Below are positions 11,222 through 55,099 of a stretch of DNA of 64,000 nt, piece after piece (the first letter of the stretch is position 1; the number at the start of each line of letters is the position of its first letter). A program made the position numbers and the translations under genes. The notes below the pieces were generated by a model. The model had not been told where the DNA came from. It did no database searches and saw only the letters and a program-made list of their open reading frames with translations. Source of the DNA: Narcine bancroftii (taxonomy: Eukaryota); contig NC_091478.1 of NCBI RefSeq assembly GCF_036971445.1, forward strand, positions 14,322,001 to 14,386,000, in the 5' to 3' direction.

Positions 11222-11540
11222 CTACCGATGTAAAAAAAAAGCATTGCATATAAATTACAAAAGTGAAATCAATCGAATTCCCTTGCAATTTCACTTTAAA
11301 AGTTGCCCAGTCAATCATTCAATCTATTCTATTAATAGATTGGAGCATTCTCATGGTAGAAAGATCTAAAAATAAAATCGCAGAGAAACCACGACAAAAA
11401 CTAAAATAGATTACAATTACTTTATGCGTTTAATTTGATGATTTCGATGTACAGCAGTGGCACCTTTTAAAGGTGTATGAATAAAATGAAAACTTTCTTA
11501 AGTGGCAATACTCCACATATTAATATCCAAAATCACTTAC

Positions 11541-11635
11541 GCCTGGCAATAGGGTTTCTTCTGGTGGCTAATAAAATTGTTAACCGTTAGGATCATTTTG
11601 CAGACCTCGCAATGAAAACAAGACTTGTGCCATGT
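11541..11635 (-). CDS. NRAP: NRAP coding exon 2 (LIM domain)
   Basis: cag|[31 protein letters not shown](A)|gtaagt; 95 nt. Confidence 0.95.
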
Positions 11636-11713
11636 CTGTAGACACAAAATGCACGTTATTCAATGTCCACAATCTTTCTTAACTTCAACGAACGTCCGGC
11701 AATATTCACTGAC

Positions 11714-11782
11714 CTGATCCAAGCAAACTAATTTCTCCGCGGGATAAACCCCGGATCCACAGCGGGCGCACGGTGCATTCAT
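11714..11782 (-). CDS. NRAP: NRAP coding exon 1 (LIM domain start)
   Basis: ATG at 11782: MNAPCARCGSGVYPAEKLVCLDQ|gtcagt; 78-nt intron 1. Divergent from CASP7, as in human 10q25. Confidence 0.95.
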
Positions 11783-11899
11783 TTTAATTATGAGTTGATA
11801 AAACCACGAAAGAGCCCTTCCCTTCCCTTCCCTTCCCCCGAGTTGCCTCCCCCCCCCCCACCAATTCACTTGGTCGAAGTTAGAACCTGTTGCAAGCAG

Positions 11900-12120
11900 T
11901 CAACGGGCTTTATTCATGGCCAAACTGGACGTCCCCGTTCCTCGCCCATTGGTTGAAACGTCCCGTTACAGGCAGAACCCAGCTTGAGTAAGGTTACCAG
12001 AGCTGTCCATCATTGTATCAGATTTAAGTCGGGAGAATGACTCGGTCTCATGAAGATCTTATCCCAAAATAGGAGGAAGTAATATGTTGCTAAATACGAT
12101 TTGACGTCAACCACATCCAG
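11900..12120 (-). promoter_or_regulatory. Putative NRAP proximal promoter
   Basis: CCAAT (minus strand) near 11948-11952; perfect CArG box CCAAAATAGG at 12064-12073 with adjacent AGGAAGT ETS core at 12074-12080; palindromic CRE TGACGTCA at 12102-12109. Confidence 0.5.
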
Positions 12121-12324
12121 AAGGGAACTGACAACATTCTATGAACACATTAAAAAGCTATTTCCTGGGCATTTTCTGTCAGGAATGGTCACACCACACG
12201 CTGCTAAATTTTCCATGTTTCTAAAGAAAACTTAGCTTGTTATCTTCTGTACAGGATGTAGTTAATATATTCCTTTTTATAATGATCATTCTGGCTATCA
12301 GTGAAGATTGGTAGGAACTCCATC

Positions 12325-13215
12325 AGTACCTGTGCACCACAGGGCTGTGTTCTTAGCCCCCTGTTCGACTGTGTGGCTTGGTACTACAAGATCTACAAAT
12401 TTGCCGACCATACCACTGTACTGGGTTGGATAAAGGAAGGGGATTCGTCAGAGTAGAGGAAGGAGATTGAAAACTTGGTGCATTTAATGTCACCAAAACT
12501 AAGAAGCTGATTGTTGACTTCAGGAAAGGAAAGCCAGAGGTAGACAATCTAGTGATTGAGAGGGTGAGCCAGTTTAAGTTCTTGGATCTTTTCTGGACCC
12601 AACAAGCCAATGTCAGTGCCTCTACTTCCTCAGGAGTTGCAAAGGTTTGGTATGACACCAGAAACACTGGCAAATTTCTACAGAGGTGTGGTGAAAAGTG
12701 TGGCTGCATCATGGTCTGGTCTGGGAACACCAATACTCCTGAATGTAAAGCCCTCTGAACGTTAGTGGGCACAGCCCAGGTAAACCCTTCCCACTATTGA
12801 GTACATCTACAGGGAACACTGCCATTGGAGAGCAGCAGCAATCATCAAAGACCCTCACCACCCAGCACACACTCTGTTCTCACTGCTGCCATCAGGAAAG
12901 AGGTTTAGGTGCCACAAAACTCACACCCCCAGTTTCAGGAACAGGTGCTACCCCTCTATCATCAGACTCCTCAATGACAAATTCAATCAGGGACTCAGTT
13001 AAGGACTCTAACTTGTGTACATTATTGATTTTTTTTTGGTTCTCTCTGTATTGCACGGTTTGTTTACATTGGTTTTCTATTTATTGTTCTTTGTTTATGT
13101 GTAAAGTTTATTTTTTGCCATGATAATTCTGCCATGACCATAGAAAAAAGGAATCTCAGGGTTGTATGTGATGTCATGTATGTATGCTGACAATAAATGT
13201 GAAATCTGAATCTGA
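12325..13215 (+). mobile_element. Rex1/Babar-like LINE 3' fragment, degenerate
   Basis: Remnant of GAPQGCVLSP, LNVTKTKKLIVDFRK, IERVSQFKFL; 3' tail gacaataaatgtgaaatctgaatctga. Same family as 41745-43620. Confidence 0.75.
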
Positions 13216-13696
13216 AGTGAATAGTATTCATAGATTAATGTTGTTAATCAGTCAATGTAAATAGAATCATTGCATGACAGAACTCATCATAGCCATGTCA
13301 TGACGCCAAGGTAATGGAATGTTAAAGCAATAAATAAAATCTATCAGCTTAATAGCAGGCTTACATTTCAACTTTTAAAATATATGATTTCCCTGTGTTT
13401 TATTTTACCTCCAAGAAGATCATTTTATTTCTCTACAGTGAATTGGTTTCTATACAACTTGCCTGCTTCAAACCTTCCACTCTTTTGGTGGGATTTGTTC
13501 TTCTGTAGAAATAGGATGAATTAATAAATTCATTAAATTGACATCCATGATTCACTTAGGATTAACATTCATGTTTTATGACATAATCCTAACTCCATAG
13601 AATTAGTTGTCTCAGTAAACTGCCTGTAATAATAGCACGTTGTGTATGTTTCAGCGAATAATTGTTTCAAATACCAAATTTTAAAGGCCAAATACT

Positions 13697-14176
13697 ATCA
13701 AATTTCCCATAGATTACTGCTGGAATTCTGCTCTCTGTCCAATTTATGACCAAAAGTCCGGAACTGAATAGTGCTGTTAAAACTTAACGGAACATTTTTT
13801 AGTAGGTTATTGATGAAGAAGTATCTAAAACACATGCAGTTCACTGGCATTAGCTGAATTAGATCATTAGCCTTTAATCTTTCATAACATTATTGCTTTC
13901 TTTTTAAGCAAGACATTAAAACAATCATTGAACTAAAATGATAAAAATTATAAGTGAATGAAACTTCTAGAATGTGTAATGTGTGATTATAGAAATTTAA
14001 GGCTAATGATCTAATTCAGCTAATGCCAGTGAACTGCATGTGTTTTAGATACTTCTTCATCAATAACCTACTAAAAAATGTTCCGTTAAGTTTTAACAGC
14101 ACTATTCAGTTCCGGACTTTTGGTCATAAATTGGACAGAGAGCAGAATTCCAGCAGTAATCTATGGGAAATTTGAT
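13697..14176. repeat. Perfect 178-bp inverted repeat (arms 13697-13874 and 13999-14176; 124-bp spacer)
   Basis: Base-by-base reverse-complement comparison shows no mismatches. Confidence 0.95.
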
Positions 14177-14271
14177 TGTGTAGCATCAAGGCGTCCTGAT
14201 AAAACTGAACAAAAACCCACAAAATACTGGAAATACTCAGCAAGTCAGGCCACATCTCTGGAGAAAGGAAG

Positions 14272-14309
14272 AGAGTTAATGTTTCAGCTTGAAATCTTTC
14301 ATCAGAACT
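14272..14309 (-). ncRNA. Penelope-type minimal hammerhead-ribozyme-like motif in a short non-autonomous repeat
   Basis: Minus strand reads AGUU-CUGAUGA-AAGAUUUCAAGCU-GAAACAUU-AACU: stem I AGUU/AACU, intact core, vestigial stem III. Confidence 0.5.
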
Positions 14310-14389
14310 GGAAAAAAAATTTTAAACAGTTATTGACAAGTTGAAGAAAATGGACAGAAAAAATAATGCTTGTAATAGAATGGAGATAA

Positions 14390-14464
14390 ACCTGATCCAA
14401 GCAAACTAATTTCTCCGCGGGATAAACCCCGGATCCACAGCGGGCGCACGGTGCATTCATTTTA
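14390..14464 (-). other. Exact 75-nt duplicate of NRAP coding exon 1 (4 nt upstream of ATG through the GT donor)
   Basis: Identical to 11712-11786 in the same orientation; the flanks are unrelated. Confidence 0.95.
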
Positions 14465-14639
14465 TCCATGCAATACAATTGCTTCTAGTGCTTTTTTGTT
14501 ACTCAAGGCTGATGTGACTGGAAGAGTGCAAATGAAGGGAGGTGATTGAAGACAGTCCTAAAATTGGGACTGCTCATGGATTGGATCAGTCCAGATTTTC
14601 CAGATTCTCAAGCCATACTTTTAAAATTCAAATTTAAGG

Positions 14640-15297: not shown

Positions 15298-18200
15298 CAA
15301 TCAAAAATTTATGCAAGATATCTTTTTGAAGATTGTAGATACGCAGGGGAATATACTGATAGGAGGGGACTTTAACCTTAATTTGGACTCAAAGATGGAC
15401 AAAACTGGACAAAAAAACTAGCAGAAAGAACAAAGTAACCAAATTTATGGTTAAATCGATGCAGGAAATGCAACTTTTGGATATATGGAGGAGACAACAC
15501 CCAAAGGAGAAGGAATACTCATATTATTCGGGTAGACACAAAACATAGTCAAGGATAGACCTGTTCCTGTTGTCAACCCACATCCATGACAGAGTTAGAA
15601 AAACGGAATATAAAGCTAGATTGTTATCAGATCACTCACCCCTGTTATTAGCAATAGAGCTGGAGGACTTCCCACCAAGAACGTATAGATGAAGATTAAA
15701 CTCCATGCTACTTAAAAGACAGGATTTTAGAGAATTCATTGAGCGACAAATTAAAATGTACTTTGAAATAAATTCGGATGCAATGAACGTTCATCAGAGG
15801 GCAGATAATAAGTTATGTAACTAAGATGAAGAAGGACTACAATCGGGAAATAGAACAGCTGGAAAGGGAAATAGCAAGTACAGAAAAAGAATTAGCAACA
15901 AGGGAAGATACAAAAAAAAGAGATTGGCGAACAAAAAAATAAAATATGAAACACTACAAACGTATAAGATGGAGAAGAACATAATGAAAATAAAGCAGAA
16001 GTATTATGAGCTAGGAGAAAAAAATGCACAAAATACTAGCTTGGCAACTTAAGACAGAACAAACTAAAAGAAGGGTATTGGCATCAAGGAAAAAGGACAA
16101 ACAAATTACATATAACCCAACGGAGATCAATGAAAACTTCAAGCAATTCTATGAGCAATTATATCGAACTGAGAACAAAGGGAAAGAAGACAAAATAGAT
16201 GAGTTTCTAGCTAAAATTGAACTACCTTAATTGCAAGAAGAGGAGCAAAATAAATTAATAAAACCATTTGAAATAGAGGAAATACAGGATATATTAAAAA
16301 AAACTACAACAATAAAACACCAGGAGAGGACGGACTCCCAATAGAATTCTATAAAACATTTAAAGACTTATTAATTCCTCCTCTCCTGGAAGTAATGAAC
16401 CAGATTGAAGAAACAAAACATGCCAGATTCATGTAAAACAGCAATAATTACAGTAATACCAAAGACGGGGAAAGATCCACTAACACCAGCATCGTATAGA
16501 CCAATATCTCTACTTAACACAGATTATAAGATAATAGCTAAACTATTAGCAAACAGATTGGCCGACTGTGTACCAAAAATAGTAAAACTAGATCAAACTG
16601 GATTTATTAAGATGAACAACAGACAATATCTGTAAATTCATTAACTTAATCCATGCAGTACAAGGAAACAAGACACCAACAATGGCATTTGCCTTAGATG
16701 CAGAGAAAGCCTTTGACAGAGTAAAATGGAATTATTTATTCAAAGTACTACAAATGTTCAACCTACCAGAGAAATATATTAATTGAATTAAAGCATTATT
16801 TAAGGGACTATTGGCAAAGGTGACAGTAAATGGGTATATATCAAACCAATTTAAATTAAGCAGGTCAACTAGGCAGGGATGTCCACTATCTCCCTCACTG
16901 TTTGTATTAGCTATAGAACCACTGGAAGAACTGATAAGAACAGAAAGTAAAATAAAAGGGATAAAAATAAAAGAGAAGGAATATAAAATCAGTCTATTGG
17001 CAGATGATGTCATAGTATACTTAACAGAACCAGAAATATCAATAAAAGAATTACATAAGAAATTGAAGGAATATGAAGAGTATCGGGGTACAAGATCAAC
17101 GCAAATAAAAGTGAAGCGATACCAATGAATAATGCGGATTTCACAAAGTTTAAGAAAGAATCACCATTTAGATGGCAAACACAAGTAATCCGATACCTAG
17201 GTATACAACTAGATAATAATCTAGGCCATCTATACAAACTAAATTATCAGCCATTAATGAAGAAAATACAAGACGACTTAGAACATTGGAAAGATTTACC
17301 ACTAACACTGATAGGAAGGTTACATTGCATTAAAATGAATATCTTCCCAAGGATACAATACCTATTCCAATTGTTACCAATTCACCTAACAGAAAAATTC
17401 TTCAAGGAGCTACATAAAATAATAAGGAAATTCTTATTGAAAGGGGGGAAACCGAGGATAGCACTAGATAAATTATCAGAATGGTACAAACAAGGGGGCT
17501 TACAGCTACCAAACTTTAAGAATTATTATAGAGCAGCACAATTAAGATACCTATCAGATTTTTAATCAAACAAGGGAAAAAGCCAGATTGGACCAGATTA
17601 GAGCTAGATAAAATAGGGGAGAAGGTACCTGAACATATACTATATAAGTGGGATGAAAAGCTGGTGCAACATAGGAATTCACCAGTACTGCACCATCTGC
17701 TCAACATTTGGAAGAAGATTCACGTAGAAAGGAATAAAACAAATTATCAACTACCAAAATTAATATTGACGCAAAATCAACCAATCCCATTCACAATAGA
17801 TAACCTTTCCTTTAGAGAATGGGAAAGAAAAGGGATCAAAAGAATAGAAATATGTTTTTCGGGAAATAAATTATTATCTTTTGAACAAATGAAGTGCAAA
17901 TATGGTATAACTCACGGTACAATGTTTGCATACCACCAACTGAAAACCTCCTTGAAGGACAAATTGGGAAGCAGGCTGAGGTTACCAGAAGGAAGCAATC
18001 TTGAATATGTGATTACAGACACAATGATAATTAAAAGATTTATAACAAACATGTACATCAAACTGCAAGAGAAAGAGAACAAGGAAACAAGCTGTAAACC
18101 CAAACAAAAATGGGAACAAGATCTAAACATAAAGAATGAAACATGGGAAAAGCTATGCTCCGGAACTATGAGAAATACAATAAACACGAGGTTACACATG

Positions 18201-18970
18201 ATACAATATAATTGGTTACACAGGCTATACACCACGCCCCAAAAGTTAAATAAATGGGACCCAACAGTATCAGACAGATGTTTTCGTTGTAAGAAGGAAA
18301 TGGGAACAACAGTACATGCAATTTGGGCATGTGAGAAAGTGGAAAAGTTTTGGGAAGATCTAAATCAGGTATTAAATAAAATCACAAAAAGCAACACACC
18401 AAAAAATCCAGAGATCTTTCTTCTAAGTAATACAAGAAGAACTTGGACTCAATTTGGATGGAGCACAAAAAAGATTTATTATGATAGCCTTAGCTGTAGC
18501 AAAAAAATGTATTATGTCAACCTGAAAATTAGAAGATAGCCTGAGAATACAGCAATGGTACATAGAAATGAATAAATGTATTCCATTGGAAAAAATAACA
18601 TACAATTTAAGAAATAACATCACAGTATTTGAACAAATTTGGGAACCGTACATGGAACACAACAGAGAAGTCCTATTGCTGACCTCCACCACCTAAAATG
18701 ACAGAAGCAGAAGAAGACGAAATGAACGGACCCAGCGTGTAAAAGTAGAAGACACAAATTTCTTGTTTATTTTCATTGTGTGATGACATTGTTTAATGGG
18801 TTTAATGTATCATATATGTTGAACATTGAGTGGGTGGGGAGGGGGGTGAAGGAGGGAAGGAAGGGGGAAAAGGGGAGAAAATTACACTGTCTATATTCAA
18901 GAGGGAAATGTTTATGTGTATTTTGGTCAATATGGTTCATAGTGTGAAAAATATTTTTTTTTTTTAAAAA
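15298..18970 (+). mobile_element. L1/Tx1-like LINE, 5'-truncated within the endonuclease; ORF2 disrupted by stops and frameshifts
   Basis: IGGDFN, LSDHSP, YRPISLLNTDYKIIAK, LDAEKAFDRV, TRQGCPLSPSLF, LADDVIVY, YLGI, CFRC...HAIWAC zinc knuckle. 15-bp TSD aagcttatgatgagt at 15283-15297 and 18971-18985. Confidence 0.95.
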
Positions 18971-19800: not shown

Positions 19801-21099
19801 GAGCTAAATAGTAACCCAATCTGCATTTGTTTTCTCAGATTTCAAGGAAGTCACATTGTGAACTAGTAGAGACTTTCAATATTGTACAAGTCATATTTCA
19901 CAGAGGAAATAATGGCTGTAGTTGTTGGTCAATCACGCCAGTCCCAGGATGCTGCTACAGGAATTCATCAGTGGAGATCTATAACCAGCTGTCTGCTCCT
20001 GGCTGAAGATCAGACAAGAGGGACACATGTTGATGATTGCATAATGTTCTTTACCAAAATAAATGTATCTAAAAAAAATTCATTCTTGCATGCAGTAAGA
20101 TTTGTACAATATTTAGACATGGGCTGATAAGAAGGAAGTAAAGTCACACTAGTTCCAGTCAATGACATCTACAACAAGAAAAATGTCATCCCCTTTTTGA
20201 AACTTTGAAAATGTATGGGGGCTGCAGGTTAATTGGGTGTATCTGGGCAGCATGGGGTTATGATCTAGAAAGCCCTCTTACTATCCTGTACATCTAAATT
20301 ACATTAAAAATTATATCTAGCAATATCGTTGTAAAATCTGCCATATTAAATATGCTGGAGATTACCATAGTCCAGACACTTATCTGGATCAGTCCCATTA
20401 AGGCAGATCAGAAACTGGGTACCTGTCATTGTATGGTCTGCTACCCATCTTTAGCAAGCAATTCTATTGCATGCTCGGAACGTTCTCCACTTACCTGCAT
20501 GCAATTTCCAAAATGTTCTATCACAAAAGTACCATGGCTACACTATTGACCTGATGCCTTGACAACTGATTAAGGCTCTTTCAGTAGGGGCATCGCAACT
20601 TTGTGACTCACATTCAGAGAGAAAAAAAAGCAGCGAACTTTCCTGCCTTCCAAGATAAACAAGATTAACCACACAGGTTACTTTAAAAGTATTTCCCAAA
20701 CTTGGAAGCACGGAAGAATTTTCATTATTTTTTTGAAGCTCAAGAAATTGGTCACCCCAGAGGAGTAATGGATAGTTTGGAAACATGCCTTGGGGTTTTT
20801 ATTTCCCAGAGACACGAGGGTTTGAGAAGCCCCTCCTGCTGAGTGAAAAATGCTAGAGAAGCTCAGCAAGTTACGCCCTTCCTCATAGAGTCTAACCGGA
20901 ACGCTCAGCAAAGTACAGGTCTGATCTATCTGTGCATTGGATCAGAGCAAACAATTAATAACTTTTATTTTTTTTAAAAGAGTGTTTTTCTGCACACGAA
21001 CCTTGACAATCAATAATCAACGAGTTATTCCGCAATAATGCATTGCCTGTCAATTGTTTAATAAGAAAAACTGAGTCGTTAGTAGCTAATTCAGCCCAG

Positions 21100-21900
21100 A
21101 TCTATCGATCTGCCTTTATCCAATCATATTGATCGGAGCTGACTGTGTTCAGAGCGGATGTGGGGAGTTTGTCTTGAGTTCAGCTTTAAACTTGTGTGAT
21201 CCCCTGCAACCATCCCCTCGCAGAAAAGAGTTGCGGTGTGAGTGAGCAATTCCTCTGCAATGATGCTGTGTCTTACCCCCACTGGTGAGTGTTTGTTTGA
21301 ATGCAGTCCACACTGAGGTTCGAGCTTCCGCGTTGGGTCATGCGCCCTTTCAAGGGGTGGCAGGTGTACGATGCCCCCAGGACCTGTCCGCTCCAACGGG
21401 GACCGGCCCACGCAGAGTGTGCAAGGAATCTTCCGGCCGCGTTCAATCTTCCACGTCGGAAACTCTCCGCTGGCTCAAAAGTTGGCCCTCGCGAGGACTT
21501 TACACGGACGTTCACGAAGGGGGTGGCAGATTGTGTTCGACACAATCCTGACCTGACAACGTGAGCCCGATCCGGCTCGACTCCGTTTAGAGTTGGGTGG
21601 GCTCTTTATTTGTGCAGGACGTGTCCCTACAGTATTACCTGCTAAATATGATTGCTACAATAATATTTGGGGTGCATCGTTAAATGGTAGTTATAATAGC
21701 CCGCTCTGATCAAGGGGCACGATTTTCCAGGCTCACTGGCCCGCGGAAGTGTCAGAACGACCAGAAATGTCACGGTGTTCGATCCAAACGTGGTGGAGCT
21801 CGGAGAAATGCTGAGGAGGTGTATGTCTGGCAATCTCAGTAGTGAGAGGAGCGGCAATGCTGCCCCACCTACGGTTCTTCAATATTTTCTGGTCCACGCT
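21100..21900 (+). promoter_or_regulatory. CpG-rich promoter / first-exon region of the TGOLN2/KCT2-like gene
   Basis: CpG density is clearly above the AT-rich background; ETS/GABP-type CGGAAGTG near 21744; contains the first coding exon. Confidence 0.55.
21260..21284 (+). CDS. TGOLN2/KCT2-family membrane protein, putative coding exon 1 (signal peptide start)
   Basis: ATG ATG CTG TGT CTT ACC CCC ACT G|gtgagt: strong phase-1 donor matching the phase-1 acceptor at 22108, giving MMLCLTPTVAFCMNILAILNRQTSCS. Confidence 0.6.
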
Positions 21901-22107
21901 TGCCCCTTATTCTGCGCTGCTCAGGTTGTTTTTTTTTAAAATCTGTTTTCATTGCTGCCCTTCTAAGCCATGAAGTGTTTTGACTTTTCCTGGCGTCACT
22001 CGCAAATTTAGATTTTGTGGGACTTCTGACCAGCTACAAATTTGTATTGTTGAGATTAACCTTTAAACAGTAAATTGTTAATGAATAACCAATGTTTCTA
22101 TCTGCAG

Positions 22108-22628
22108 TTGCTTTCTGCATGAACATCCTTGCGATTTTAAATCGACAAACATCCTGTTCTGAACAAAATAACACAACCAACTTATCTTCCACTGTAACTT
22201 CCTCTCCACGTGGGTCTGCTTCCCTTTTCGGTCAAAAAGAGTGGCTAGTTTTAACCATTCCCTTGCAAAATGGATATAAAGAGTCTACAATCACAGAGAC
22301 GTCATTTAAAGTTACCCAGTCAAATGTGTCCAATTCACAATCTACACTTGAAGAAAAGAAAGGCACAACCAAGCCAACCATGGTCAAAGAGGAAGCGAAT
22401 GTTACCCAGACAAATGGAGAACTAGCCTCTCCATCCACTGTAAGCAAAGGGGGTGGAGAGTCAACAACTGTTGTCCAACCAAGTGCACTTGGCAGTAGCA
22501 CAACGGCTCAAGCATTCTTGCAATCTGGCATCAAGATAGCTGCTGAAGATGGTCATTTTATAATTTATGTAATAGTTGGATCATTGCTTTTATCACTGAT
22601 GTATATTGTGTACCACAACAAAAATAAG
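22108..22628 (+). CDS. TGOLN2/KCT2-family membrane protein, exon 2 (Ser/Thr-rich lumenal domain and TM helix)
   Basis: tctgcag acceptor; mucin-like S/T-rich region with N-glycosylation sequons (NNT, NTT, NLS, NVS, NVT); EDGHFIIYVIVGSLLLSLMYIVYHNKNK|gtaact, like the (E/D)SHFF...YIxxHNKRK of TGOLN2 and C5orf15. Confidence 0.88.
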
Positions 22629-24079
22629 GTAACTAATTTATTTAACAACTTTCTTGGTTTAATGTGCAAGAAGTTCTAAAGTGAGCAGGTACCGAAAGGT
22701 CTCACACTTGTTTTCCATGTAATATTTAAATGTGGTGGAGCATATTTCCAGTCTCAATTAGAGGAGTATCTGGAATGAAACATAGAAATTGAGAGTGGGC
22801 TGCCTTCCGTCAGAGAATTTCACATCTTTGTGTGAAGAACAAACCAGAAAACCATAGGAATCGGCCCTTTAGCCCATGATGCCCTATATGAAGATCTGCT
22901 TTCACGTGTTATACATCCTTCTATTGTCAATTGGTATCTATCCAGAAGCTTCTTAAGCCTACCATTATCTACTTCCATTACTACCTAGCCTCCTCTAGAT
23001 TCTGATTCACCATCCTATTTATCGTTGCTCACATTGTATACATCTGTAGTGTCTTCCCTCAGCCTCCAATGCTCCAGAGCTACCTAATCTGGAATTTTAA
23101 AAAATCACATGGTTGTTGCTTCTGAAGGGGCCCCAGTGCAACAGATCAATTCTTAATTTTTTTTTTACATCGTACTTGGCTAGAGAGCAGGCCTTTCTAA
23201 ACTTCACACTGATTGGGGAAACAATCAGAATTATTGCTACAATAATTTGGTTAACTAATTTGTGTTTAAGATCACCTATGATTATAGTTTGCCTATTTCA
23301 TGCCATCTCAACATGTTTTGGGGTCTACTATAATAATATGTCCCATTATATATGGGTGAAGTCTAAATTCTGCAAACTGAGCTAAGATTCTTCACTTTTG
23401 TCAAACTTTGCTTTAACCACCAATGACATATGACTGGATTTATTTTTCTCCTTGTTCTTTACATGGATGTTAAGTTGGCTTGCTTGCTTCCTCAGTTCAC
23501 ATGTCTCTATCATCCCAATGTTTTCATCAATTTTCCTGATTAATTCAGCTATTATTAAAGCTCTGGGCATTTGGGTACCACCTATGTGGCATTTACTGGC
23601 ACTGCTAATGTAACTGTTTCTTTCCCTTTCTGTCTCCCTGCTTGTATTCCCATCCCTCCACTATCATTTAAACACTTCTCAAAATTTCTCGAAACATCCA
23701 TGGGACATTTGTTTCAGCCTGAGTTTTTTTTTTGGCTGTCCAAGTTCTGAACTTGTCAGTCCTTCCACCACTCTGTAAATTAAAAACGTAACATTTTGAG
23801 TCTGTTTCCTTTACCAAAGATGTGTCTGACTTGAAATAGTTCAGTAATTTTATTGGCTATCATTTTTCAGCTGACTTTAGGAGGATATAATTTTAATGTA
23901 GCTTTGCATCATTTGGTAATTAAGCATCTTGCTGATATAGTTTATAAATCAGTATTTGTTGAGTTCTTACCTTGGAATGTTCAGAACCAGTTTTGTTCGA
24001 CAGGTCTGTTTTACACAATGAAATTTAAATTTTCCAAAACCTTTTTAATTTGCTTCACTTCAAATTATTTCTTTGTCAG

Positions 24080-24196
24080 AAATTTGGAAGTAGAAGAACC
24101 AGTTGGCCGAATACTTGTGAATATCAACGGCTTGATCAGAACTTGAGTGAAGTCATCACCAGTCTAAAAAAGAAAACCAACATTAAACTACTCTGA
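24080..24196 (+). CDS. TGOLN2/KCT2-family membrane protein, exon 3 (cytoplasmic tail with YQRL motif)
   Basis: tcag|KFGSRRTSWPNTCEYQRLDQNLSEVITSLKKKTNIKLL*; AATAAA signals near 24749 and 24969 in a ~1-kb unique 3' UTR. Confidence 0.85.
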   Translation, partial: KFGSRRTSWPNTCEYQRLDQNLSEVITSLKKKTNIKLL

Positions 24197-25214
24197 AATG
24201 TGTGGATGTATGCATTTTGAAATCTCCAGACAATGCCTAATTGGCAATATCAGATCTCAATGACAACATTTTTAGTTGGGTTGTTACTTGCAGATTCTTG
24301 CATTGTGGTTTATTTGTTTTTCTTCTTCTAACGAAGCTGCTTACTGCTTGAAATAATTTTTTAAATGTTCAAATATGGAAATGAAGCCAATTGCACTGGA
24401 ATGTAGTGTGTCATGGAATACAGGTTTGGTTATACCTGTCTTTGCCTCTATTAAATGCAATGGCATTTGTGCAGACCAAGATTTGATTATTGAATCTCAC
24501 TGGCTTTGATTGGGAATAGAAATTTATTTGCAAGAAAAAAGCTTTGGTAATCTAAAAGGTTCTTAACCAGAATAACCAGCCACTTGTAAATGACTGTTTT
24601 CTCTTGTATGCCTCCTAATCACACCTGCTTTTAAGAAATAAGAATAATGTAAATACTTGAAGGGAGACTTCAGAGTGTAAAGGCTAGGATTTGCTCAACC
24701 AGCCAAGAAGGGACTTGATTTAAATGGTGTGCACTTAACAAATTGGAGAAATAAAATGGAACTGAGCAGTATTAATGTTTACCATTCTCTGAAATGAACA
24801 AATAGTTTTCTAAAAACTCTTTAAGAATGCAGGTTTGGTTTGAGACTTTTATTCCAACCTGGCATCCTTGAGTTGAAACCACTTAGTTTTGACTTCTATG
24901 AACTAGATGAGATGAAAAGAAATGCTATGCCTTTTTAGTGATGGAGGTGGCTTAGTGTGGATAAACATAATAAATGCCCTGTGGAGCTTGCACAAAAGGC
25001 TTATGTAAGCATTGAAATTAAAACTTTTGGCAACTACTGTTTTGCTGTCAAATTTGTAACAACCTTTTCAAAATGTATGATGACTCAAAATTTATTGGTC
25101 TTTTGACAGGACGCTGCTTAAACAACTTGTCTATATTTGAATTTAGGAAATGTTCAAATTTAAATATACTTGATTAGACAAGAAAACCAATATCTTGGCA
25201 ATCTGAAAGGAAGA

Positions 25215-28149: not shown

Positions 28150-28720
28150 CCATGGACATTGACGGATCGGGTCAGGTGGGCCGCGATGGGCCCAACGGCC
28201 TACTTCTGTTCCGATCTCCTTCATCCTGGTGGTTCATGAAAGACGGAATGCGCCTCTACTGCTCTCCGCTGGGGACCGACCGAGGAGAGGAGGGAGAGGT
28301 TTGCATTCCCCCCCTCCCGGGACATTCTCCCCGCAGCGACGAGGAAGGAGGGCGACTTCCGTCTTTGGCCAAGAGTCCGACAAATCAGCTCCGAGCTCCA
28401 TTCGGGCTCTTCAGCGCGTCCTTGCCCGGGGTTGAGTGGGGGCTGCAGGGGCGGGACGGGGCCAGCCATTTCCTCCCCTCCACGGCCCGTCCAGTTCACC
28501 GGCGGCAGCGCTTCGCTCCGCGGGACGGCGGAGACTTCGGAAGCGACCTCGCTTGGTTTACATCGCGCCGCGCTGAAAGTGGCCGGGACACCCTGAGAAA
28601 GGCGCCGCTTCTCCGCCCTTCTCATCGGGAGGGATCGGCGTTCAGCCTCGCCGCGCTCTTTTCAGGTGCGGGAGATTTTTGTTCAACACTTTGTATGAGA
28701 GCAAGTCCCCTCGCCCGCCA
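28150..28720 (+). promoter_or_regulatory. CASP7: CpG island; probable CASP7 promoter and non-coding exon 1
   Basis: High GC and CpG content, GC box ggggcggg near 28448, candidate donor CAG|GTGCGG after 28665; upstream of the first CASP7 coding exon. Confidence 0.55.
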
Positions 28721-28758
28721 CCCCCAGGAGGGATTTCTTTCTTTGGAACCTTGGTTCC

Positions 28759-29443
28759 CTTTGCCCCCCCCTCCCCTCCTTTGCCCCCCCCTCCCCTCCT
28801 TTGGCCCCCCCTCCCCTCCTTTGGCCCCCCCCTCCCCTCCTTTGGCCCCCCCCTCCCCTCCTTTGGCCCCCCCCTCCCCTCCTTTGGCCCCCCCCTCCCC
28901 TCCTTTGGCCCCCCCCTCCCCTCCTTTGGCCCCCCCCTCCCCTCCTTTGGCCCCCCCTCCCCTCCTTTGCCCCCCCCTCCCCTCCTTTGCCCCCCCCTCC
29001 CCTCCTTTGGCCCCCCCCTCCCCTCCTTTGGCCCCCCCTCCCCTCCTTTGGCCCCCCCTCCCCTCCTTTGCCCCCCCCTCCCCTCCTTTGGCCCCCCCTC
29101 CCCTCCTTTGGCCCCCCCTCCCCTCCTTTGGCCCCCCCCTCCCCTCCTTTGGCCCCCCCCCTCCCCTCCTTTGGCCCCCCCCTCCCCTCCTTTGGCCCCC
29201 CCCTCCCCTCCTTTGGCCCCCCCCTCCCCTCCTTTGGCCCCCCCTCCCCTCCTTTGGCCCCCCCCTCCCCTCCTTTGGCCCCCCCTCCCCTCCTTTGCCC
29301 CCCCCTCCCCTCCTTTGGCCCCCCCCCTCCCCTCCTTTGGCCCCCCCCTCCCCTCCTTTGGCCCCCCCCTCCCCTCCTTTGGCCCCCCCCTCCCCTCCTT
29401 TGGCCCCCCCTCCCCTCCTTTGGCCCCCCCCTCCCCTCCTTTG
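28759..29443. repeat. C-rich minisatellite, ~20-22-bp unit (TTTG(G)C6-9TCCCCTCC), about 33 copies
   Basis: Directly visible; units differ mainly in C-run length. Confidence 0.95.
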
Positions 29444-32400
29444 TGGACAATGCCCAAATGTAGGGTTCCCCCCCCATAACTTTCTGCGTCCGGAATATGG
29501 CGCCATCTCATCTAGAACGGTTAAGTGAGTGAATGCTAAACTTAAAGCAGACACAATTCCGGTTTTGTGGTTACCTAAATGATTACATGATGTCCGGACA
29601 GATGGGAACGCGACCCCGGCGGGGCCAGCGATCTCTTGAGCCACGCTTCATTAGGTTAAGGGGCAAGGGTAGAAATGATTGGTCCACACTCCTGTCAATC
29701 ACACATGTGGGTCAGGAGAGTAGATGATCTTTTTATTTCCTCTACTGTCCAGACGAAGAAATCCCAGGGTTGTAAAATGACACAGGCAGATTCAAAGGGA
29801 TGGTTGTGGTTAACTTTAGGAACAGATTTAAGGACGCGGAAATATTTTAGGAAAGCTATTGCAAGTGGTGCCCCTGTGATCTCTACTTGGCAAATTGGAA
29901 AGGCTTAAAGATTTAAAATGTGCTTGAAGTGTAACAATTATTAATTCATAGCTTTTTATAACAAACAGCTGTGGGAAACATGAAAATGTTCAACATGACA
30001 AGGAGAAGGATCTCATATTGTTACGTTCCATTGATTTCACTTGCTTGGGATTCTCCAAAAATGTGCTAAATTGTGTAGATTGAAATTAATGGAAATACTT
30101 TCTACTTTGGTTTCAAATGTGACAGGTGTTCCCCTTAAAATCCACACGGTTGGGAAATACTCCTTGGAAGCCGTAAATAAACCTGGATTTACCCTAACGG
30201 TATGTAGAAGTACAGTTGGGAACAGCTACAAATATACAGAACAACAAAAGATATCTGTCTTGAATTCTTGAAGCAGTAGTTACTTTTTTGGCACAGTACA
30301 CATTTGGTACATAAATTATGTCATTGAATTATAAAATGAATATTTTAATGACATGTAGATGCTTTTTTTTCAATCGTTTTCTGACAGTGATTTATGTATA
30401 AAATGAAAATAACCTTTTACTATATATATCATTTTAATTTATCTGGGATGGAGCTGGTATTTTGACACACAAGTGATTAAGTTGCTTAAAGAGAAAATGT
30501 GTTTTGCGCTGCCTCAGTGTCAGTGATATAGATATTGGAGAGCAAACTTGACATATTGTTTGTGACACATTTCAGAATGTTTTGGCTATTACTTCCATAT
30601 ATCAATGATAAAATTGGCATTTTGTGATTTTTTTTTCCCTCCAACATAAGATTAATTGTTTCTAAACCATGCATGTATGTGTTACACTTCAATAATTGGC
30701 TACACCATGAATTTGAGAACTTTATTGTTAATTTTGCATTTTCATCACTTGGGCATCATCGGATCTATCAAGGTCTGCAAGTAGACATTGCATCAACATT
30801 TCCAGAAATGGAGATAAATGTACATTGAAGTTGTGAAAGTTGGACCTTGATTTGGTTGGTGCCGAAGAATGTGGTTGGTGCGTGGCATATTTTATGAATG
30901 TACTTTGTTTGTACATGTCCACTGTTGATAGCCATAAAGTTGTTATCAAATTGTACATCAGCAAGATTTTAATAAAACCCATTTATGAATATGAAGGTAT
31001 CTTCGGTATATTGAGAACTGTTTAAAAGAGTGAAATGAATCTTCAATCTATAAGCAGGCTTCAAAAATTAGCATCTTTTGCTACTAGCTTAATGAAACAC
31101 TGACCAACACAAATGGCATAGTAATATCCCAGATTCATAAGATAAATGCAGAAACAATTAGGTTTATCCAAAATTAAGTTAATTCACTGGGGAAAATGCC
31201 TGCAATGTCCTTGCTGTGACATCAATTCTTTAATAATTCAGGGTTTTTTTTTATTCCAGCCTACCTTGCAATCCATTCCATTAATAAGCAGAAAATTCTA
31301 TTGGACAATAAAATGCTCTTTTTTGGTTTGCTCCCCATTTCCTTAGCATATTCTCATAATTTTGTCTGCGAGACATTTTCAAATCACAATTTCCACACTG
31401 TTTACCTTCATATATACTGTATGTTTATTAGGTCATGATGTGTTTACTTTTTCAAATATCCAGTTCTTTCTCAGTGTCTTCCTTGGATAACGTTAGAAAT
31501 TGGTCTAGTTGTGTCTTTAGGAATTGGATTTAGAATTTGAATGCCTCAGCCAGAAATAGTCAAAGGTTCCTTTTATTGTCATGTAATAATAGATTAAAAT
31601 GTAATGTACATGAAATACTTCAATTTTTCTCTGTCATAAAGCACCCTGAAACAACAGGAAAAAGAGAAGCAAAAGAGAGAGTCCCTTCAGAGTCACGGAG
31701 TGTCCGTGGATTTTCCTCCACCACTCCCGCACCCTCTGCAGCTGCACTGACTCCAGTTCAAACCATCAGCGACCCGAGCTCCAGATCCAAACCTCCAATG
31801 TGTTCAGAAAGCCTTTAAGGCCCGAGGCTCTTTTCGGAGCATTTCTTGCCCTCAGGACCCTCTTGAATAGACCCACAGAAAACTACAGCACATAGAACAG
31901 GCCATTCAGCCTTTCTAATCTGTAACAAAACATCATTCTGCTAGTCCCTTTGCCAAGCACTTAGTCCATAACAGAGTCCAATTGTCCAAAAACATGAAAC
32001 TGTCCGTCCTGCTCCTTCTCTTTAGCGGCGTGTCTCTTTAGCGGCATATTTAGCTGCATTCACTTCCTATTTCTAACCTCATTAGCACATGGCAGTGGTA
32101 GCACTCCTGACATTGCAACCATGGAGGTCCTGTCCTTCAACTTTGCACTAAACTCTCTTTGCAGGACCTGCTCATCCTTCCTACCCAGGTCATTGGCCCC
32201 CACATGGACCATGACATCTGGCTGCTCATGTTCCCTCCTGAGAATACCAAGAACTCGATCTGAGATCCCAGTTCCAATATCTAGTTCCCATGATACAGTG
32301 TCCAGCAGCCCGCAATCTGTTTGGGTCCTTTAACCACAAGTCACCCACAACCTTTGTGAGATCTTTGATCGCAGGTTGCCAACAGCTTGCAACCTATGTG

Positions 32401-32671: not shown

Positions 32672-35252
32672 CGAGGAGTCACGTGATGGAGTAGTGACTG
32701 GTAGGGGAATTCCAGCCCTCTCCAGAAAAGTTTCAAAAAAAGGTAGAGAAAAAACAAAGTCACTAACACAGAAACCACAACAAATTGAAAGTGAAAGTGT
32801 GGAGAAAATGGCAGCAAAGAAAGAAAAACCAAAAGCAACGGGAAGAAAAGAAGAAGGAAGGACGTCGGAAGAGGAAGGTGAAAGCCTTACCGGTACGAGG
32901 AAGCCCGCCGTGGAGAGAGAAGTGGAAACCCCGAACTCAGGACTACAAAGATGGCTCACGGAGCCAAACAAAAGTGTGCAACTGCGCATGCACGATGCAC
33001 AAGACAAAAACAACACTGACAGGAGGTGGGGATCAGCTGAGGAGTAAATCTCCACAGCCAAAACTGACAAGTATAACATGACAGCAACTCTCCAAACAAG
33101 AAAACATAGAAAATAATGGGAACAAGAAGGAAGAGAATAAAAATAGGAAATCAAAGAAACAACAGATGACCAACTCAGAGGAAGAAGACCAACACCAAGA
33201 CACTTTTAATAAAAATAAGAAGAACAAAAATACCCAACAAAATAAAATAAACAACCCAACAAGAAAACCAGAAGAGACAGAGGTAAAAGACACAGATCCT
33301 GGAGTGGACCCAGAAGAAGAGGAGGGAGAACACAGAGAAATGGAAGATGAAGGGAAGGGCAAGTACATGGATATATTTTTTTTTAAAGAATATACGGAAA
33401 CAGTAAAAGAATGGCAGACGCAAGAATTCATTGAAATAAAAAGAAGAATAAAAAGTACAGAAGAAAAAGTGAATAGATTAGAGATGATCATGACAGATAT
33501 AGGAAAAAGAGTGGACAAGGTGGAAGAACGAGAAACAGCCATAGAAATGGAAGTAGAGGACTTAAAAAAGAAATTAGAGGAATCTGATAAAAAAGTTAGA
33601 GTCACAGGAGCTGTTAGCTGGTTAGATATGTCTGATAGATATAATGGAAAATTATAATAAAAGAAATAATATAAAGATAGTGGGCCTTAAGGAAGATGAA
33701 GAAGGCAAAAATATGAAAGAATTTATAAAAGAATGGATCCCCAGGGTCCTAGGAAGACCAGAATTACAGGAAGAAATGGAAATAGAAAGGGCACACAGAA
33801 CATTAGCCTCAACCACAATCACAACAAAAACCAAGATCCATTCTAGTAAAATTCCTAAGATATACAACAAGAGAAAATATATTGGAGAAGGCAATTAAAA
33901 AAATAAAAGGAGACGAAAAATCACTGGAATACAAGGGTCAAAAAAATTTTTTCTATCCAGATATAAGTTTTGAACTCCTGAAGAGGAAGGAGTTTAATGC
34001 AGCAAAAACGACCCTATGGAAAAAAGGTTATAAATTTATGTTAGAATACCCAGTGGTACCAATCAAAACAGAACCTTTCCTTCAGAGAATGGGAGAGAAA
34101 AGGGATCAAAAGAATAGAAAATTGTTTTTCGGGAAATAAATTATTATCCTTTGAACAAATGAAGGATAAATGTAATATAACTCACGATACAATGTTTGCA
34201 TACCACAACTGAAAACCTACTTGAAGGACAAATTGGGAAACAGTCTGAGGTTACCAGAAGGAAGCAATTTTGAATATGTGATTACAGACACAATGATAAA
34301 TAAAAGATTTATAACAAACATGTACATCAAACTGCAAGAAAAGGAGAATGAGGAAACAAACGGTAAACCTAATCAAAAATGGGAACAAGATCTAAACATA
34401 AAGATAAAGAATGAAACATGGGAAAAGCTATGCTCCGGAACTATGAGAATTACAATAAACACGAGGTTACGCATGATACGATATAACTGGATACACAGGC
34501 TATGCATCACACCTCAAAAGTTAAATAAATGGGACCCAACAGTATTAGACATGTTTTCGCTGTAAAAAGGAAACGGGAACAACAATTCATGCAATTTGGA
34601 CATGTGAGAAAGTGAAAAAATTTTGGGAAGATCTAAACCAGATATTAAATAAAATCACAAAAAGCAATATACCAAAAAACCCAGAGATCTTCCTCCTAAG
34701 TAATATAAGAAATAAAGAATTTGGACTCGATTTGGATGGAGCACAAAAAAGATTTGTTGTGATAGCCCTAGCTGTAGCAAAAAAAATGTATTATGTCAAC
34801 CTGGAAATTAGAAGACAATTTGAGAATACAACAATGGTACATAGAAATAAATAATGTATTCCATTAGAAAAAATAACATATAATTTAAGAAATAACATCA
34901 CAATATTCAAACAAATATGGGAGCCATACATGAAATACAATAGAGAAATCCTACCATGGACTTCCACCACCTAAAATGACAGAAGGAGAAGACAACGAAA
35001 TGAACTGACTCTTTATATAAAAGTAAAGGACAAAAATTTCTTGCTTATTTTTATTAAGTGACGACATTGTTTAACGGGTTTAATGTATCTTATAGATTGA
35101 ACTTCAAATAAATGGGAAAGGGGGTGAGGGAGGGAGGGAAGGGAGGGGGAAAAAGGGGGAGAAAATGACACTATATATTCAAGAGAAAAAATGTATGTAT
35201 GTATCTTGGTCAATATGGTTTATAGTGTGAAAAATAAAAAAAAAATTTAAAA
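32672..35252 (+). mobile_element. L1/Tx1-like LINE with 5' UTR and ORF1, internally deleted (ORF1 joined to the ORF2 C-terminus)
   Basis: ORF1 coiled coil and RNNIKIVGLKEDEEGKNMKEFI...MEIERAHR, FFYPDISFELL; jump near 34050-34072 into the ORF2 3' part; 14-bp TSD aagactgggcagta at 32658-32671 and 35253-35266. Confidence 0.9.
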
Positions 35253-41744: not shown

Positions 41745-43620
41745 TCAAAGTTTAGACTTATTGTCAGAATACATACATGATATCAGATACAATCCTGATA
41801 CTGTTTCTCCTGTGGGCGAGGCAGAATGACCTCTTACTGGTCGTGCAAAAACTGTACTCATGAAGATATGTACACATGTAAACAAATAAATAAATCTAAA
41901 CAAACTGACTGTGCAATACAGAGAGAAAAAAATCAATAAATTGCAGGTGTAAGAGTCCTTAAATTGAGTTTGTTGTTGAGTCTGATGGTGGAGGGCTAGC
42001 AGCTGTTCCTGAACCTGGTGGTGTGAGTCTTGAGGCACCTGTACCCGTTCCTGATGGTAGTAGCGAGAACAGAGCGTGTGCTGAGTCATGTGGATCCTTG
42101 ATGATTGTTGCTTTTCTCCAATGGCAGTGTTCCCTGTAGATGTTCTCAATGGTGCGCAAGGTTTTGCATGTGATGTCCTGGGATCTGTGCACGATCATTT
42201 GGTGTCACCATACCAGACCATGATGCATCTGGTCAGCACACTTTCCACCACACATTTGTAGAAATTTGCCAGGGTTTCTGATGTCGTACCAAACCTACAC
42301 AATCTCCTGAGGACGTAGAGGAAGATGACGTGCTTTCTTCATGATGCCATTTGTGTGTTCGGTCCAGGAAAGATCTTCTGAGATAGTGACACTCAAGACC
42401 TTAAATTTGCTCACCTTCTCCACCTCTCATCCCCCTATGATCAGTAGATTGTACACCTCTGGTTTTCCCTTCCTGAAGTCAACCCATCAGCTCCTTAGTT
42501 TTGGTGGCATTGACTGCAAGGTTGTTGTTGGTGCATCATTCAGCCAAGTTTTCAATCTCCCCTCCTGCATGCTGACTCACTGCCTTTTTTATACAATCCA
42601 CTACCATGGTATCGTCAGCAAATTTATAGATGGTTTTATTATCGTACTGAGCCATACAGTTGTAGATGTAAAGTGAGCAGAGCAGGGGGCTAAGATCGCA
42701 GCCCTGTGGTGCTCCAGTACTGATGGAGATTGTGAAAGAGATGTTCTTACCAATCCTCACTGATTGTGGTCTGGAGGTGAGAAAATTCAGGTGTTGAGTC
42801 CCAGGTCTTGGAGTTTTCTGATCAATTTTGAGGAGATGATGGTGTTAAATGCCAAACTGTAGTCAACAAAGAGCATCTTGATGAATGCATCTTTACCATC
42901 CAGATGTTCCATGGATTTCTGTAAAGCCAGAGAGATTTCATCCACCATAGACCTGTTACTCCGATGTGAATTGGAACAGATCCATGTCACCGCTCAGATA
43001 GGACCTGATATGCTTCAACACCAGTCTTTCAAAGCACTTCATCACTGTTCGTGTAAGTGCTACTGGTCGATAGTCATTGATGCAGGTTTCTTCGCTCTTC
43101 TTGGGCACAGGTATGATTGTTGTCTGTTTGAAACAAATGGATACCACACCCTGCCAGAGTGAAATGTTGAAGATATCTGTGAATACATTGCTACGTTGGT
43201 CATCACAGAATTTTAATACTCTGCTGGGTACTCCATCCGGACCACTTGCTTTCCTCAGATTCACTCTCCTGAAGGCAGCCCACACGCCATCCTCAGATAT
43301 GGACAGGATGGGATCATCAGGGGACGTGGAGGTGCAGAAGGGTGGTTCTCCCTGTTACAGTGGGCAAATTGAGCCTAAAAAGCATTGAGTTCCTCTTGGA
43401 GTGAAGCTGTGCCTTCTGCTACTTTACCGGATTTGGTTTTGTAGCAGGTTATGACATTTAGGCCCTGCTATAGCTGTCGGAGGTCCTTCCTTGTTCCAAT
43501 TTTCATCTGGAATCTCCACTTTGCCCAGGAGATAGCTTTTTGTAGGTCATACCTGCTCCTTCTGTATTGATCTGGATTTCTGGAGTACCTGTGAACTGGC
43601 TCTCAGCAGGTTCTAGATAT
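41745..43620 (-). mobile_element. Rex1/Babar-like LINE RT region, degenerate
   Basis: [65 protein letters not shown]. Confidence 0.88.
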
Positions 43621-43683: not shown

Positions 43684-44770
43684 CTCTGGATTTTTTGGTA
43701 TGTTGCTTTTTGTGATTTTATTTAATATCTGGTTTAGATCTTCCCAAAACTTTTCCACTTTCTCACATGCCCAATTGCATGTACTGTTGTTCCCGTTTCC
43801 TTCTTACAGCGAAAACATCTATCTGATACTGTTAGGTCCCATCTATTTAACTTTTGGGGCATGATGTATAGCTTGTGTAACCAATTATATTGTATCATGC
43901 GTAACCTCGTGTTTATTGTATTTTTCATAGTTCCGGAGCATAGCTTTTCCCATGTTTCATTCTTTATCTTTATGTTTAGATCTTGTTCCCATTTTTGTTT
44001 GGGTTTACAGCTTGTTTCCTCGTTCTCTTTCTCTTGCAGTTTGATGTACATGTTTGTTATAAATCTTTTAATTATCATTGTGTCTGTAATCACATATTCA
44101 AAACTGCTTCCTTCTGGTAGCCTCAGCCTGCTTCCCAATTTGTCCTTCAAGTAGGTTTTCAGTTGGTGGTATGCAAATATTGTACCATGAGTTATACCAT
44201 ATTTATCCTTCATTTGTTCAGAAGATAATAATTTATTTCCCAAAGTAATATAAGAAGTAAAGAACTTGGACTCGATTTGGATGGAGCACAAAAAAGATTT
44301 ATCATGATAGCCTTAGCTGTAGCAAAAAAATATATTATGTCAACCTGGAAATTAGAAGATAGCCTGAGAATACAACAATGGTACATAGAAATGAATAAAT
44401 GTATTCCATTGGAAAAAATAACATATAATTTAAGAAATAACATCACAGTATTCGAACAAATTTGGGAACCGTATATGGAACACAACAGAGAAGTCCTACC
44501 GCAGACCTCCACCCCCTAAAATGACAGAATGAGAAGAAGATGAAATGAACTGACCCAGTGTGTAAAAGTAGAAGACACAAATTTCTTGTTTATTTTCATT
44601 GTGTGATGACATTGTTTAATAGGTTTAATGTATCATATAGGTTGGGGGGGGGGTGAAGGAGGGAGGGAAGGGAGGGGGGGAAAAGGGGAGAAAATGACAC
44701 TGTATATTCAAGAGGGAAATGTTTGTGTGTATTTTGGTTAGTATGGTTCATAGTGTGAAAAATTTTTAAA
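43684..44770. mobile_element. L1/Tx1-like insertion with 5' inversion (43684-44241 minus, 44242-44770 plus)
   Basis: Both parts match the ORF2 3' region of the copy at 17.8-18.9 kb; short aaccat flanking duplication at 43674 and 44771. Confidence 0.88.
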
Positions 44771-52185: not shown

Positions 52186-52337
52186 CAAGAAAAAAACAAA
52201 AGATGAAGAAAGAAAGGATCCTGAAATAGCTGATCATCACACACGGATTGTTGCACCCACATTTCTCTATAATATGAACTTCAAAATTCTAGGAAAATGC
52301 ATTATTATTAATAATAAGAATTTTGATGATGTAACAG
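52186..52337 (+). CDS. CASP7: Caspase-7 coding exon 2
   Basis: atag|(S)[50 protein letters not shown]|gtattg; phase 2/1. Confidence 0.95.
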
Positions 52338-53743: not shown

Positions 53744-53919
53744 AAAGCAGGAAAAACCCAACAACCAACCCCAACCAACCAATTTTCCCCTGCAACCGAT
53801 GCAACCGTGTCTGCCTGTCCCGCATCGGACTTGTCAGCCACAAATGAGCCTGCAGCTGACGTGGACATTTACCCCCTCCATAAATCTTCGTCCGCGAAGC
53901 CAAGCCAAAGAAGAAAAAG
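53744..53919 (+). mobile_element. RTE LINE 3' fragment
   Basis: Same terminal sequence as 47837-47970; aaataac duplication at 53737-53743 and 53920-53926. Confidence 0.85.
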
Positions 53920-54683: not shown

Positions 54684-54812
54684 AAATGAATGTGCGTAAT
54701 GGTACAGATATTGATGCTGGAAATCTGTACAGGTGTTTTAGCTATTTGGGTTTCCATGCTGCGGTGTTAAATGACCAGACTTGTTCTCAGATGAAGAGGA
54801 TTCTACAAGGTG
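54684..54812 (+). CDS. CASP7: Caspase-7 coding exon 3
   Basis: ccag|(E)MNVRNGTDIDAGNLYRCFSYLGFHAAVLNDQTCSQMKRILQG|gtgagt; 129 nt; phase 1/1. Confidence 0.95.
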
Positions 54813-55099
54813 GTGAGTAAATGTTTAAGTCTTTAGATTTCCTTAATTAAGCAATAAGATCGAATCACAACTTGATCTGAATATATTAATCGTTACTGAT
54901 CAAGCATGAATTCTTCTAAATGTTGCACTGATATTCCAAGCTATTTTAGAATTGATTACATTCCACTTTTGTTAGAAAGCACTAGTCACTCTTGGTTAAA
55001 AGAAATAAGGTGAACTTAGATTTGTCTAGTCTGATAGATTAACAATAAACTAAGGGGTAGGAAATTAAAAAAATTGAAATGAGAAATTCTGGAAATTTT

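Follow-up and report, generated by a model that had tools for sequence, protein, structure and literature searches.

Is the small gene at positions 21260–24196 of a 64,000-nt window from Narcine bancroftii (RefSeq assembly GCF_036971445.1, contig NC_091478.1, positions 14,322,001–14,386,000, forward strand) a displaced TGOLN2 (TGN38/46) or C5orf15 (KCT2), or is it a third member of their family? A first-pass annotation of the window had proposed the latter: an intact gene between NRAP and CASP7, derived from the vertebrate genome doublings, retained in this lineage and lost in mammals. Positions given here are those of the window, which is the whole stretch of DNA analysed. Our own reading, to which we assign a probability of about 0.72, is that the locus holds a spliced three-exon KCT2/TGN38-family gene that sharks and rays have in common with chimaeras. 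This gene is likely a third paralogue from the early vertebrate doublings, was likely lost in bony vertebrates, and is predicted to encode a glycosylated single-pass protein that would cycle between the surface, endosomes and the trans-Golgi through a YQRL motif.

The coding sequence consisted of three exons on the plus strand (25 + 521 + 117 nt, stop included) and encoded 220 amino acids, with both introns bounded by GT..AG and in phases 1 and 0, respectively. Exon 1 (21260–21284, 25 nt) provided eight codons and one base, the start of the predicted signal peptide. After intron 1 (21285–22107, 823 nt), exon 2 (22108–22628, 521 nt) carried the remaining signal peptide, a Ser/Thr-rich lumenal domain, the membrane segment and a YHNKNK stop-transfer motif; intron 2 (22629–24079, 1451 nt) was followed by exon 3 (24080–24196, 117 nt) with the cytoplasmic tail and the stop codon. 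The product was identical to RefSeq XP_069756076.1 (220 aa, 'keratinocyte-associated transmembrane protein 2-like', Narcine bancroftii), the one protein at 100% identity among 102 candidates in a search with exon 2. The gene is already predicted in public annotation (RefSeq).

An N-terminal hydrophobic stretch (residues 9–19) had a mean hydropathy of 2.55, within the 2.39–3.65 found in relatives. By sequence count the lumen comprised 128 residues with 31% Ser + Thr and three N-glycosylation sequons, and hydropathy placed a predicted transmembrane helix at residues 159–177 (22557–22613), aligned with the membrane segment of the family. Hydropathy and composition thus fit a predicted layout of signal peptide, low-complexity lumen, single membrane segment and short tail. 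The Narcine N-terminus is short: exon 1 encodes up to about 10 residues fewer than in relatives, with an in-frame stop seven codons upstream. The protein is mostly disordered. No solved structure matched it; in the ESM Atlas the top match reached 0.78, a lead only, and the TGOLN2 cluster appeared at TM 0.40. An endoplasmic reticulum-retrieval dilysine signal in the tail was rejected, since the lysines are not at −3 and −4/−5.

Splicing was seen in contigs from four public runs of one study. None of the runs is recorded as RNA, and the RNA type is an automatic guess; we took them as RNA because introns were skipped exactly at GT..AG, which genomic DNA would not give. Intron 1 was skipped in three of the four runs and intron 2 in all four, so that the three phase-compatible exons first proposed are found joined in public contigs and the gene has spliced expression. 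Contigs covering 20820/20969–21283 bore the intron 1 joint in runs X1, X2 and X4. They mark a transcribed 5′ region (20969–21259, extending to 20820 in one run) that is spliced to exon 1 and in which short upstream open reading frames (ORFs) start at 21038 and 21158. The likely 3′ untranslated region spans 24197–24990, with AATAAA at 24750 and 24969; contig ends at 24943–25011, near the latter, are a weak hint of the 3′ end.

Both introns had further features. Intron 1 was CpG-rich over approximately 21300–21900 (observed/expected up to 1.1), with an ETS-like CGGAAG at about 21744. Each of the four runs had contigs running through it unspliced, and it may contain an alternative start. A joint at 22769–23971, seen in two of the four runs, has CT..AC ends, which read GT..AG on the opposite (minus) strand; it may come from a spliced antisense transcript spanning intron 2.

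The protein matched Pfam KCT2 (PF17818) with 45.7 bits (E 1e-11; gathering cut-off 26.2), and exons 2 and 3 each matched the profile separately and in order. All seven relatives scanned were above the cut-off as well (31.6–62.7 bits). A phmmer search of 1.84 billion 50%-identity representatives with the Narcine protein as single query returned 77 matches, which were divided by tail motif into 8 of the Narcine type (DQNLS tail, query counted), 16 TGOLN2-like, 50 KCT2-like and 3 insect-like ones. Seven close matches scored 57–119 bits and all others at most 43 bits. Six of the seven were named (Pristis, Mobula birostris, Heptranchias, Chiloscyllium, Stegostoma and Callorhinchus); the seventh was 99% like skate proteins of Leucoraja and Amblyraja over the last 78 residues, and a search started from it added Rhinoraja and Mobula hypostoma (9 matches, 64 candidates). 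The close relatives came only from cartilaginous fishes (11 named species of rays, sharks and chimaera), and the gene was therefore present in their common ancestor. No bony-vertebrate protein of the DQNLS-tail type was among the 77 phmmer matches, with species names looked up for 20 of 76. This moderate, not final, evidence suggests that the gene was likely lost in bony vertebrates.

The automatic names of the relatives are scattered over this one orthology group (KCT2-like, TGN38-like, FLO11-like, MAGE-like and SPT2 homolog), and recognising the group replaces these misleading labels. A whale shark paper reports two PF17818 orthogroups, C5orf15 with 36 proteins from 28 taxa and TGOLN2 with 29 from 26. 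Electrophorus electricus had a divergent, long-branched TGOLN2-like fragment (P0079), perhaps a teleost duplicate, besides a typical TGOLN2 (P0158).

Automatic names such as TGN38-like and KCT2-like would suit a Narcine gene that is just the orthologue of TGOLN2 or C5orf15 in cartilaginous fishes after divergence and relocation. A TGOLN2-weighted profile search was uninformative on this point: its best 120 of 524 matches held no shark TGOLN2 or KCT2, the named ones being from mammals and ray-finned fishes. In a tree of 48 C-terminal blocks (75 columns, near-copies left out, shark TGOLN2 and KCT2 not included), the third group had supports of 92/86, apart from TGOLN2 (91/83) and KCT2 (100/97), and the KCT2 clade excluded the cartilaginous-fish third group; the tree did not fix the branching order among the three. 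The Narcine gene fell outside the TGOLN2 clade both here and in a second tree described below, neither of which held a shark TGOLN2.

Typical copies of both known genes do occur in cartilaginous fishes. We take mouse 9530068E07Rik to be the C5orf15 orthologue; mouse B230219D22Rik is C5orf24. In a catshark–mouse reciprocal-best-hit table, the catshark partner of mouse Tgoln1 is LOC119957397, at 65% over an ungapped stretch of 69 residues that reaches the C-terminal end of both proteins, and in the same table 9530068E07Rik pairs with catshark LOC119965322 (77% over the last 56 residues) (PMC13200729 Table S2). Ten clade members showed 37–54% identity with a mammal TGOLN2, with at least one gap (four controls, 75–80%), and 35–49% with a marsupial KCT2 over the last 56 residues (four controls, 70–89%). 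The catshark–mouse identities are far above these values, which marks the two catshark genes as a typical TGOLN2 and a typical KCT2.

The clade also has features of its own. The tails of all ten members extend 20–26 residues past the tyrosine versus about seven in most TGOLN2, and the spacing from YHNK to this tyrosine is 26 in the clade (20 in Narcine), 26 in KCT2 and 27 in TGOLN2. The members have neither the Trp/Cys (WRDxLCS-type) juxtamembrane segment nor the AMPSLK-type tail of KCT2. In skate, C5orf15 is at its usual place and a third-group member is present in addition. A moved orthologue is consequently very unlikely: the catshark has both known genes and the skate has C5orf15, all in other blocks. 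Given typical TGOLN2 and C5orf15 in catshark, and a third group that spans chimaera as well as sharks and rays, the ancestral cartilaginous fish had three genes. Judging from the catshark and skate genes, the Narcine gene is a third paralogue.

The surroundings of the gene bear on its origin. Upstream, divergently oriented on the minus strand, are the first exons of a LIM-domain gene (11540–14465; Pfam LIM), which we take from its sequence to be NRAP. Downstream are caspase-7 exons on the plus strand (52200–62900), scoring 80–86 bits with caspase-7 versus 74–77 bits with caspase-3. The proposed position between NRAP and CASP7 was thus borne out, with NRAP as our name for the LIM-domain gene. 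We further assume that human TGOLN2 adjoins TCF7L1 and that Cyp26c1, Fgf8-2, Ina-1 and Rrp12 are human 10q genes. The human order is given as TCF7L2, HABP2, NRAP, CASP7, PLEKHS1, and no gene is listed between NRAP and CASP7 in that source (PMC4880969), in line with the adjacency noted in the first-pass annotation. Four TCF/LEF genes arose through the two doublings (PMC9303524); six gene names searched in the supplement of that paper gave no match.

In skate, according to a supplement, the C5orf15 promoter is at 50.73 Mb on Leri_11C, adjoining Vdac1 (50.69) and a TCF gene (50.53), while Tcf7l2 is on Leri_15C and Tcf7l1 on Leri_35C; the same study derives LER15, LER35 and LER11 from a single ancestral linkage group, I/Q, as its copies 1-alpha, 1-beta and 2-beta (PMC10115646). 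In the gene numbering of that supplement, a skate gene called 'Tgoln2-2' falls among Cyp26c1, Fgf8-2, Ina-1 and Rrp12, and we found no comment on it (PMC10115646); we infer that it is the orthologue of the Narcine gene. Catshark TGOLN2 (LOC119957397) is numbered among Mat2a, Tet3, Dpysl2, Ebf2 and Kat6a, apart from Nrap (LOC119979706) and Plekhs1 (PMC13200729 Table S2). The Narcine gene, between the LIM gene and caspase-7, is neither in the TCF7L1/MAT2A block nor beside VDAC1/TCF7. The three paralogues are on sister segments of one linkage group, as read partly from gene-number neighbourhoods and not from coordinates. With one family member per TCF-bearing sister block, synteny therefore predicts that the third gene is the sister of TGOLN2.

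The tail encoded by exon 3 contains the YQRL tyrosine motif (Y197–L200, 24122–24133), located by alignment of eight clade members. Its Y and L were invariant among the eight, and the two middle residues varied. Sharks and chimaera (P0007, P0009 and P0010) had YKLL, YQQL and YMKL, with Y, L and DQNLS constant. Most relatives kept S-[DE]-Y-Q-R-L-D-Q almost as in TGN38, and the invariant transmembrane and YH residues were shared with TGOLN2. The first reading of the tail was a mixture of hallmarks of both human paralogues. A stick-insect member (Timema, UniRef A0A7R9PP59) has the RRP stretch before the tyrosine as well as the D.N..E extension after it, and both are therefore likely ancestral. With this insect member and the comparison of tails, the mosaic interpretation was rejected in favour of shared ancestral states. 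From the aligned tails, TGOLN2 likely acquired an additional residue while its tail became shorter, KCT2 likely rewrote its juxtamembrane part, and the third gene likely kept both marks.

The Narcine protein lacked six residues directly after the membrane segment and its YH[NS]K motif, which were present in all seven aligned relatives and ended in Leu-Cys-x. The description of the gene as intact holds for its spliced open frame and fails for these residues. A relic of the old exon 3 start is found in what is now intron (24062–24079, plus strand): AA stands in place of the AG acceptor. The 16 bases after it, two fewer than six codons need, still encode Ile-Ile-Ser (from 24064) and Leu-Cys-Gln (from 24071). 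The former Gln codon CAG now supplies the exon 3 acceptor. An assembly error was ruled out, as all four runs use the present acceptor and contigs over 22599–24107 showed no other letters or gaps. Most likely the original acceptor disappeared and was replaced by a more downstream one that preserves the frame. The shift removes a cysteine found in all seven aligned relatives, possibly a palmitoylation site, and brings the sorting motif six residues nearer the membrane.

These changes could mean that the gene is functional in other cartilaginous fishes and decaying in Narcine. Besides the shifted acceptor, the lost cysteine and the shortened signal peptide, the Narcine lumen has 128 residues compared with 237–300 in the other batoids measured, Narcine is the longest batoid branch in the 48-row tree, and the transcript has upstream short ORFs and an unspliced intron 1 in one run. 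However, the frame is open over 220 codons, the replacement acceptor is in frame, and shark lumens are equally short (119–128). Twenty of the 21 invariant columns are in the membrane segment, the tail or at the start codon, and these are kept. Decay is accordingly improbable in our view. Narcine keeps its frame and the YQRLDQNLSEV block, and its changes may reflect drift under weaker constraint. We speculate, with considerable doubt, that the third gene is the best surviving picture of a pre-duplication TGN38, having retained the RRP-YQRL region still present in TGOLN2 together with the helical-looking extension still present in KCT2. On this view the insect-conserved extension would be a second, so far unrecognised sorting or binding module lost by TGN46, and the family-specific juxtamembrane cysteine a lipidation site, with the Narcine splice shift a natural deletion testing it.

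By analogy with TGN38/46, the signal peptide would insert the product into the membrane in type I orientation, its disordered lumen, rich in Ser and Thr, would be glycosylated and may carry cargo, and the YxxL of the tail would bind mu subunits of clathrin adaptors, leading to retrieval from the surface. In TGN46, YQRL drives internalisation and return to the trans-Golgi network (TGN), and the lumen sorts cargo (PMC10928510); in TGN38, a second localisation signal is in the membrane segment (PMC2120028). On this model, adaptor-dependent endocytic cycling is highly probable, and steady residence in the TGN somewhat probable. A gene of the same origin might have another job, as a mucin-like protein of the surface, endosomes or lysosomes that uses YxxL for endocytosis only and does not accumulate in the trans-Golgi. 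YxxL is a general adaptor signal, its middle residues are variable among relatives, and the long tail resembles that of KCT2, for which no description of its location was found; moreover, the second signal that TGN38 needs is in a membrane segment that differs here (PMC2120028). The near-TGN38 motif of most relatives and the invariant membrane and YH residues in common with TGOLN2 speak against such a job, which is conceivable but doubtful. We retain cycling through the trans-Golgi as the predicted role.

Several observations weigh against the reading favoured here. SDYQRL alone failed to target a reporter to the TGN (PMC2133967), and the Narcine lumen has no recognisable likeness to the TGN46 lumen, which is the site of cargo sorting (PMC10928510). 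The Narcine copy is eroded, with a short N-terminus lacking basic residues, six residues including a conserved cysteine gone, and the RRP stretch altered. In one of the four runs exon 1 was uncovered and one contig crossed intron 1 unspliced, and the 5′ end is therefore less certain than the rest. The evidence for three genes is pooled over several species; no catshark third-group member turned up. The absence from bony vertebrates comes from one single-sequence search of 50%-identity representatives (20 of 76 named). The flanking genes were read in Narcine, and the numbering of skate Tgoln2-2 is a hint that the position is shared. The second tree (25 rows, 60 columns) was built with tails removed behind the motif; its aligned block was short and the sole outgroup was two long-branched insect rows, and shark TGOLN2 and KCT2 were in neither tree. 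Its best topology joined TGOLN2 with KCT2 (93/98, not starred) and placed the third group outside, and just 24% of bootstrap trees recovered the third group as a single clade.

This topology would suit a third paralogue that arose when a single gene was duplicated, either ahead of the doublings or at an early stage of the cartilaginous-fish lineage, and landed between NRAP and CASP7 without being an ohnologue. So would its occurrence in cartilaginous fishes only, and its YHNK-to-Tyr spacing of 26, long tail and three-exon layout in common with KCT2 (we presume C5orf15 to have three exons). The supporting tree result is not significant, however, and approximately unbiased (AU) tests rejected neither a third + TGOLN2 (p 0.349) nor a third + KCT2 grouping (p 0.35). 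The third gene is in the TCF7L2 block and its paralogues are in sister blocks, so a random landing is unlikely. It also has neither the WRDxLCS-type segment of KCT2 nor the additional residue and shortened tail that mark TGOLN2, and is therefore not easily derived from either. We consider single-gene duplication rather unlikely, and an origin in the genome doublings likely. The latter rests on synteny, as the trees neither show nor reject it. Of the initial proposal of an ohnologue lost in mammals, the third paralogue on sister segments stands, whereas the loss seems wider, no bony-vertebrate member having been found among the 77 phmmer matches.

Elsewhere in the window, the LIM gene (NRAP) had two copies of its first coding exon on the minus strand, at 11713–11787 and 14391–14465. 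The two copies, of 75 nt each, were 100% identical and each followed by GT, with unrelated flanks (a blastn comparison of 1.6 kb with 1.7 kb gave nothing else); they may serve as alternative first exons homogenised by conversion, or one may be a recent copy the size of an exon. Long G/C-rich tandem arrays at 1400–1840 (15-nt unit) and 28700–29480 yielded repetitive open frames. Recurring fragments of a long interspersed nuclear element (LINE)-like element with reverse-transcriptase-like frames were found at 15800–18900, 33000–34900 and 43700–44500, and further retroelement pieces at 150–1200 and 42900–43400.

TGN38/46, recently shown to act as a cargo receptor, is a standard Golgi marker, and KCT2 is, to our knowledge, nearly unstudied. 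We found no description of a third TGN38/KCT2 family member in the open-access literature, and the retention of ohnologues in cartilaginous fishes is itself a known pattern. Among 68 ohnologue cases with differential retention, 19 were retained by cartilaginous fishes and lost from bony fishes (Marletaz et al. 2023, PMC10115646); the Narcine gene has the same evolutionary pattern and may or may not be among the 19. A third member with an ancestral-looking tail suggests that different portions of the original tail survive in the two human genes, and it offers a direct test of the function of the tail extension.

The insect protein A0A7R9PP59 (annotated TGOLN2), which narrowly passes the Pfam cut-off, shares the RRP..Y stretch and the D.N..E extension with the third gene; in contrast to it, the insect member is a distant outgroup on a long branch, with 410–670 aa. 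With TGOLN2, including catshark LOC119957397, the third gene shares the Pfam KCT2 domain, the type I layout, the HF..YL..-YH[NS]K segment, the basic RP stretch and Y-x-x-L-D-Q; it differs in its 37–54% C-terminal identity with a gap, a spacing of 26 (Narcine 20) versus 27, a longer tail and another chromosome block. With C5orf15/KCT2 it has in common the Pfam KCT2 domain, the spacing of 26 and the long tail with D-Q-N-x-x-E-x-x-x-S-L-K, whereas the Trp/Cys segment, the DYIF-type end and the place beside VDAC1 belong to KCT2.

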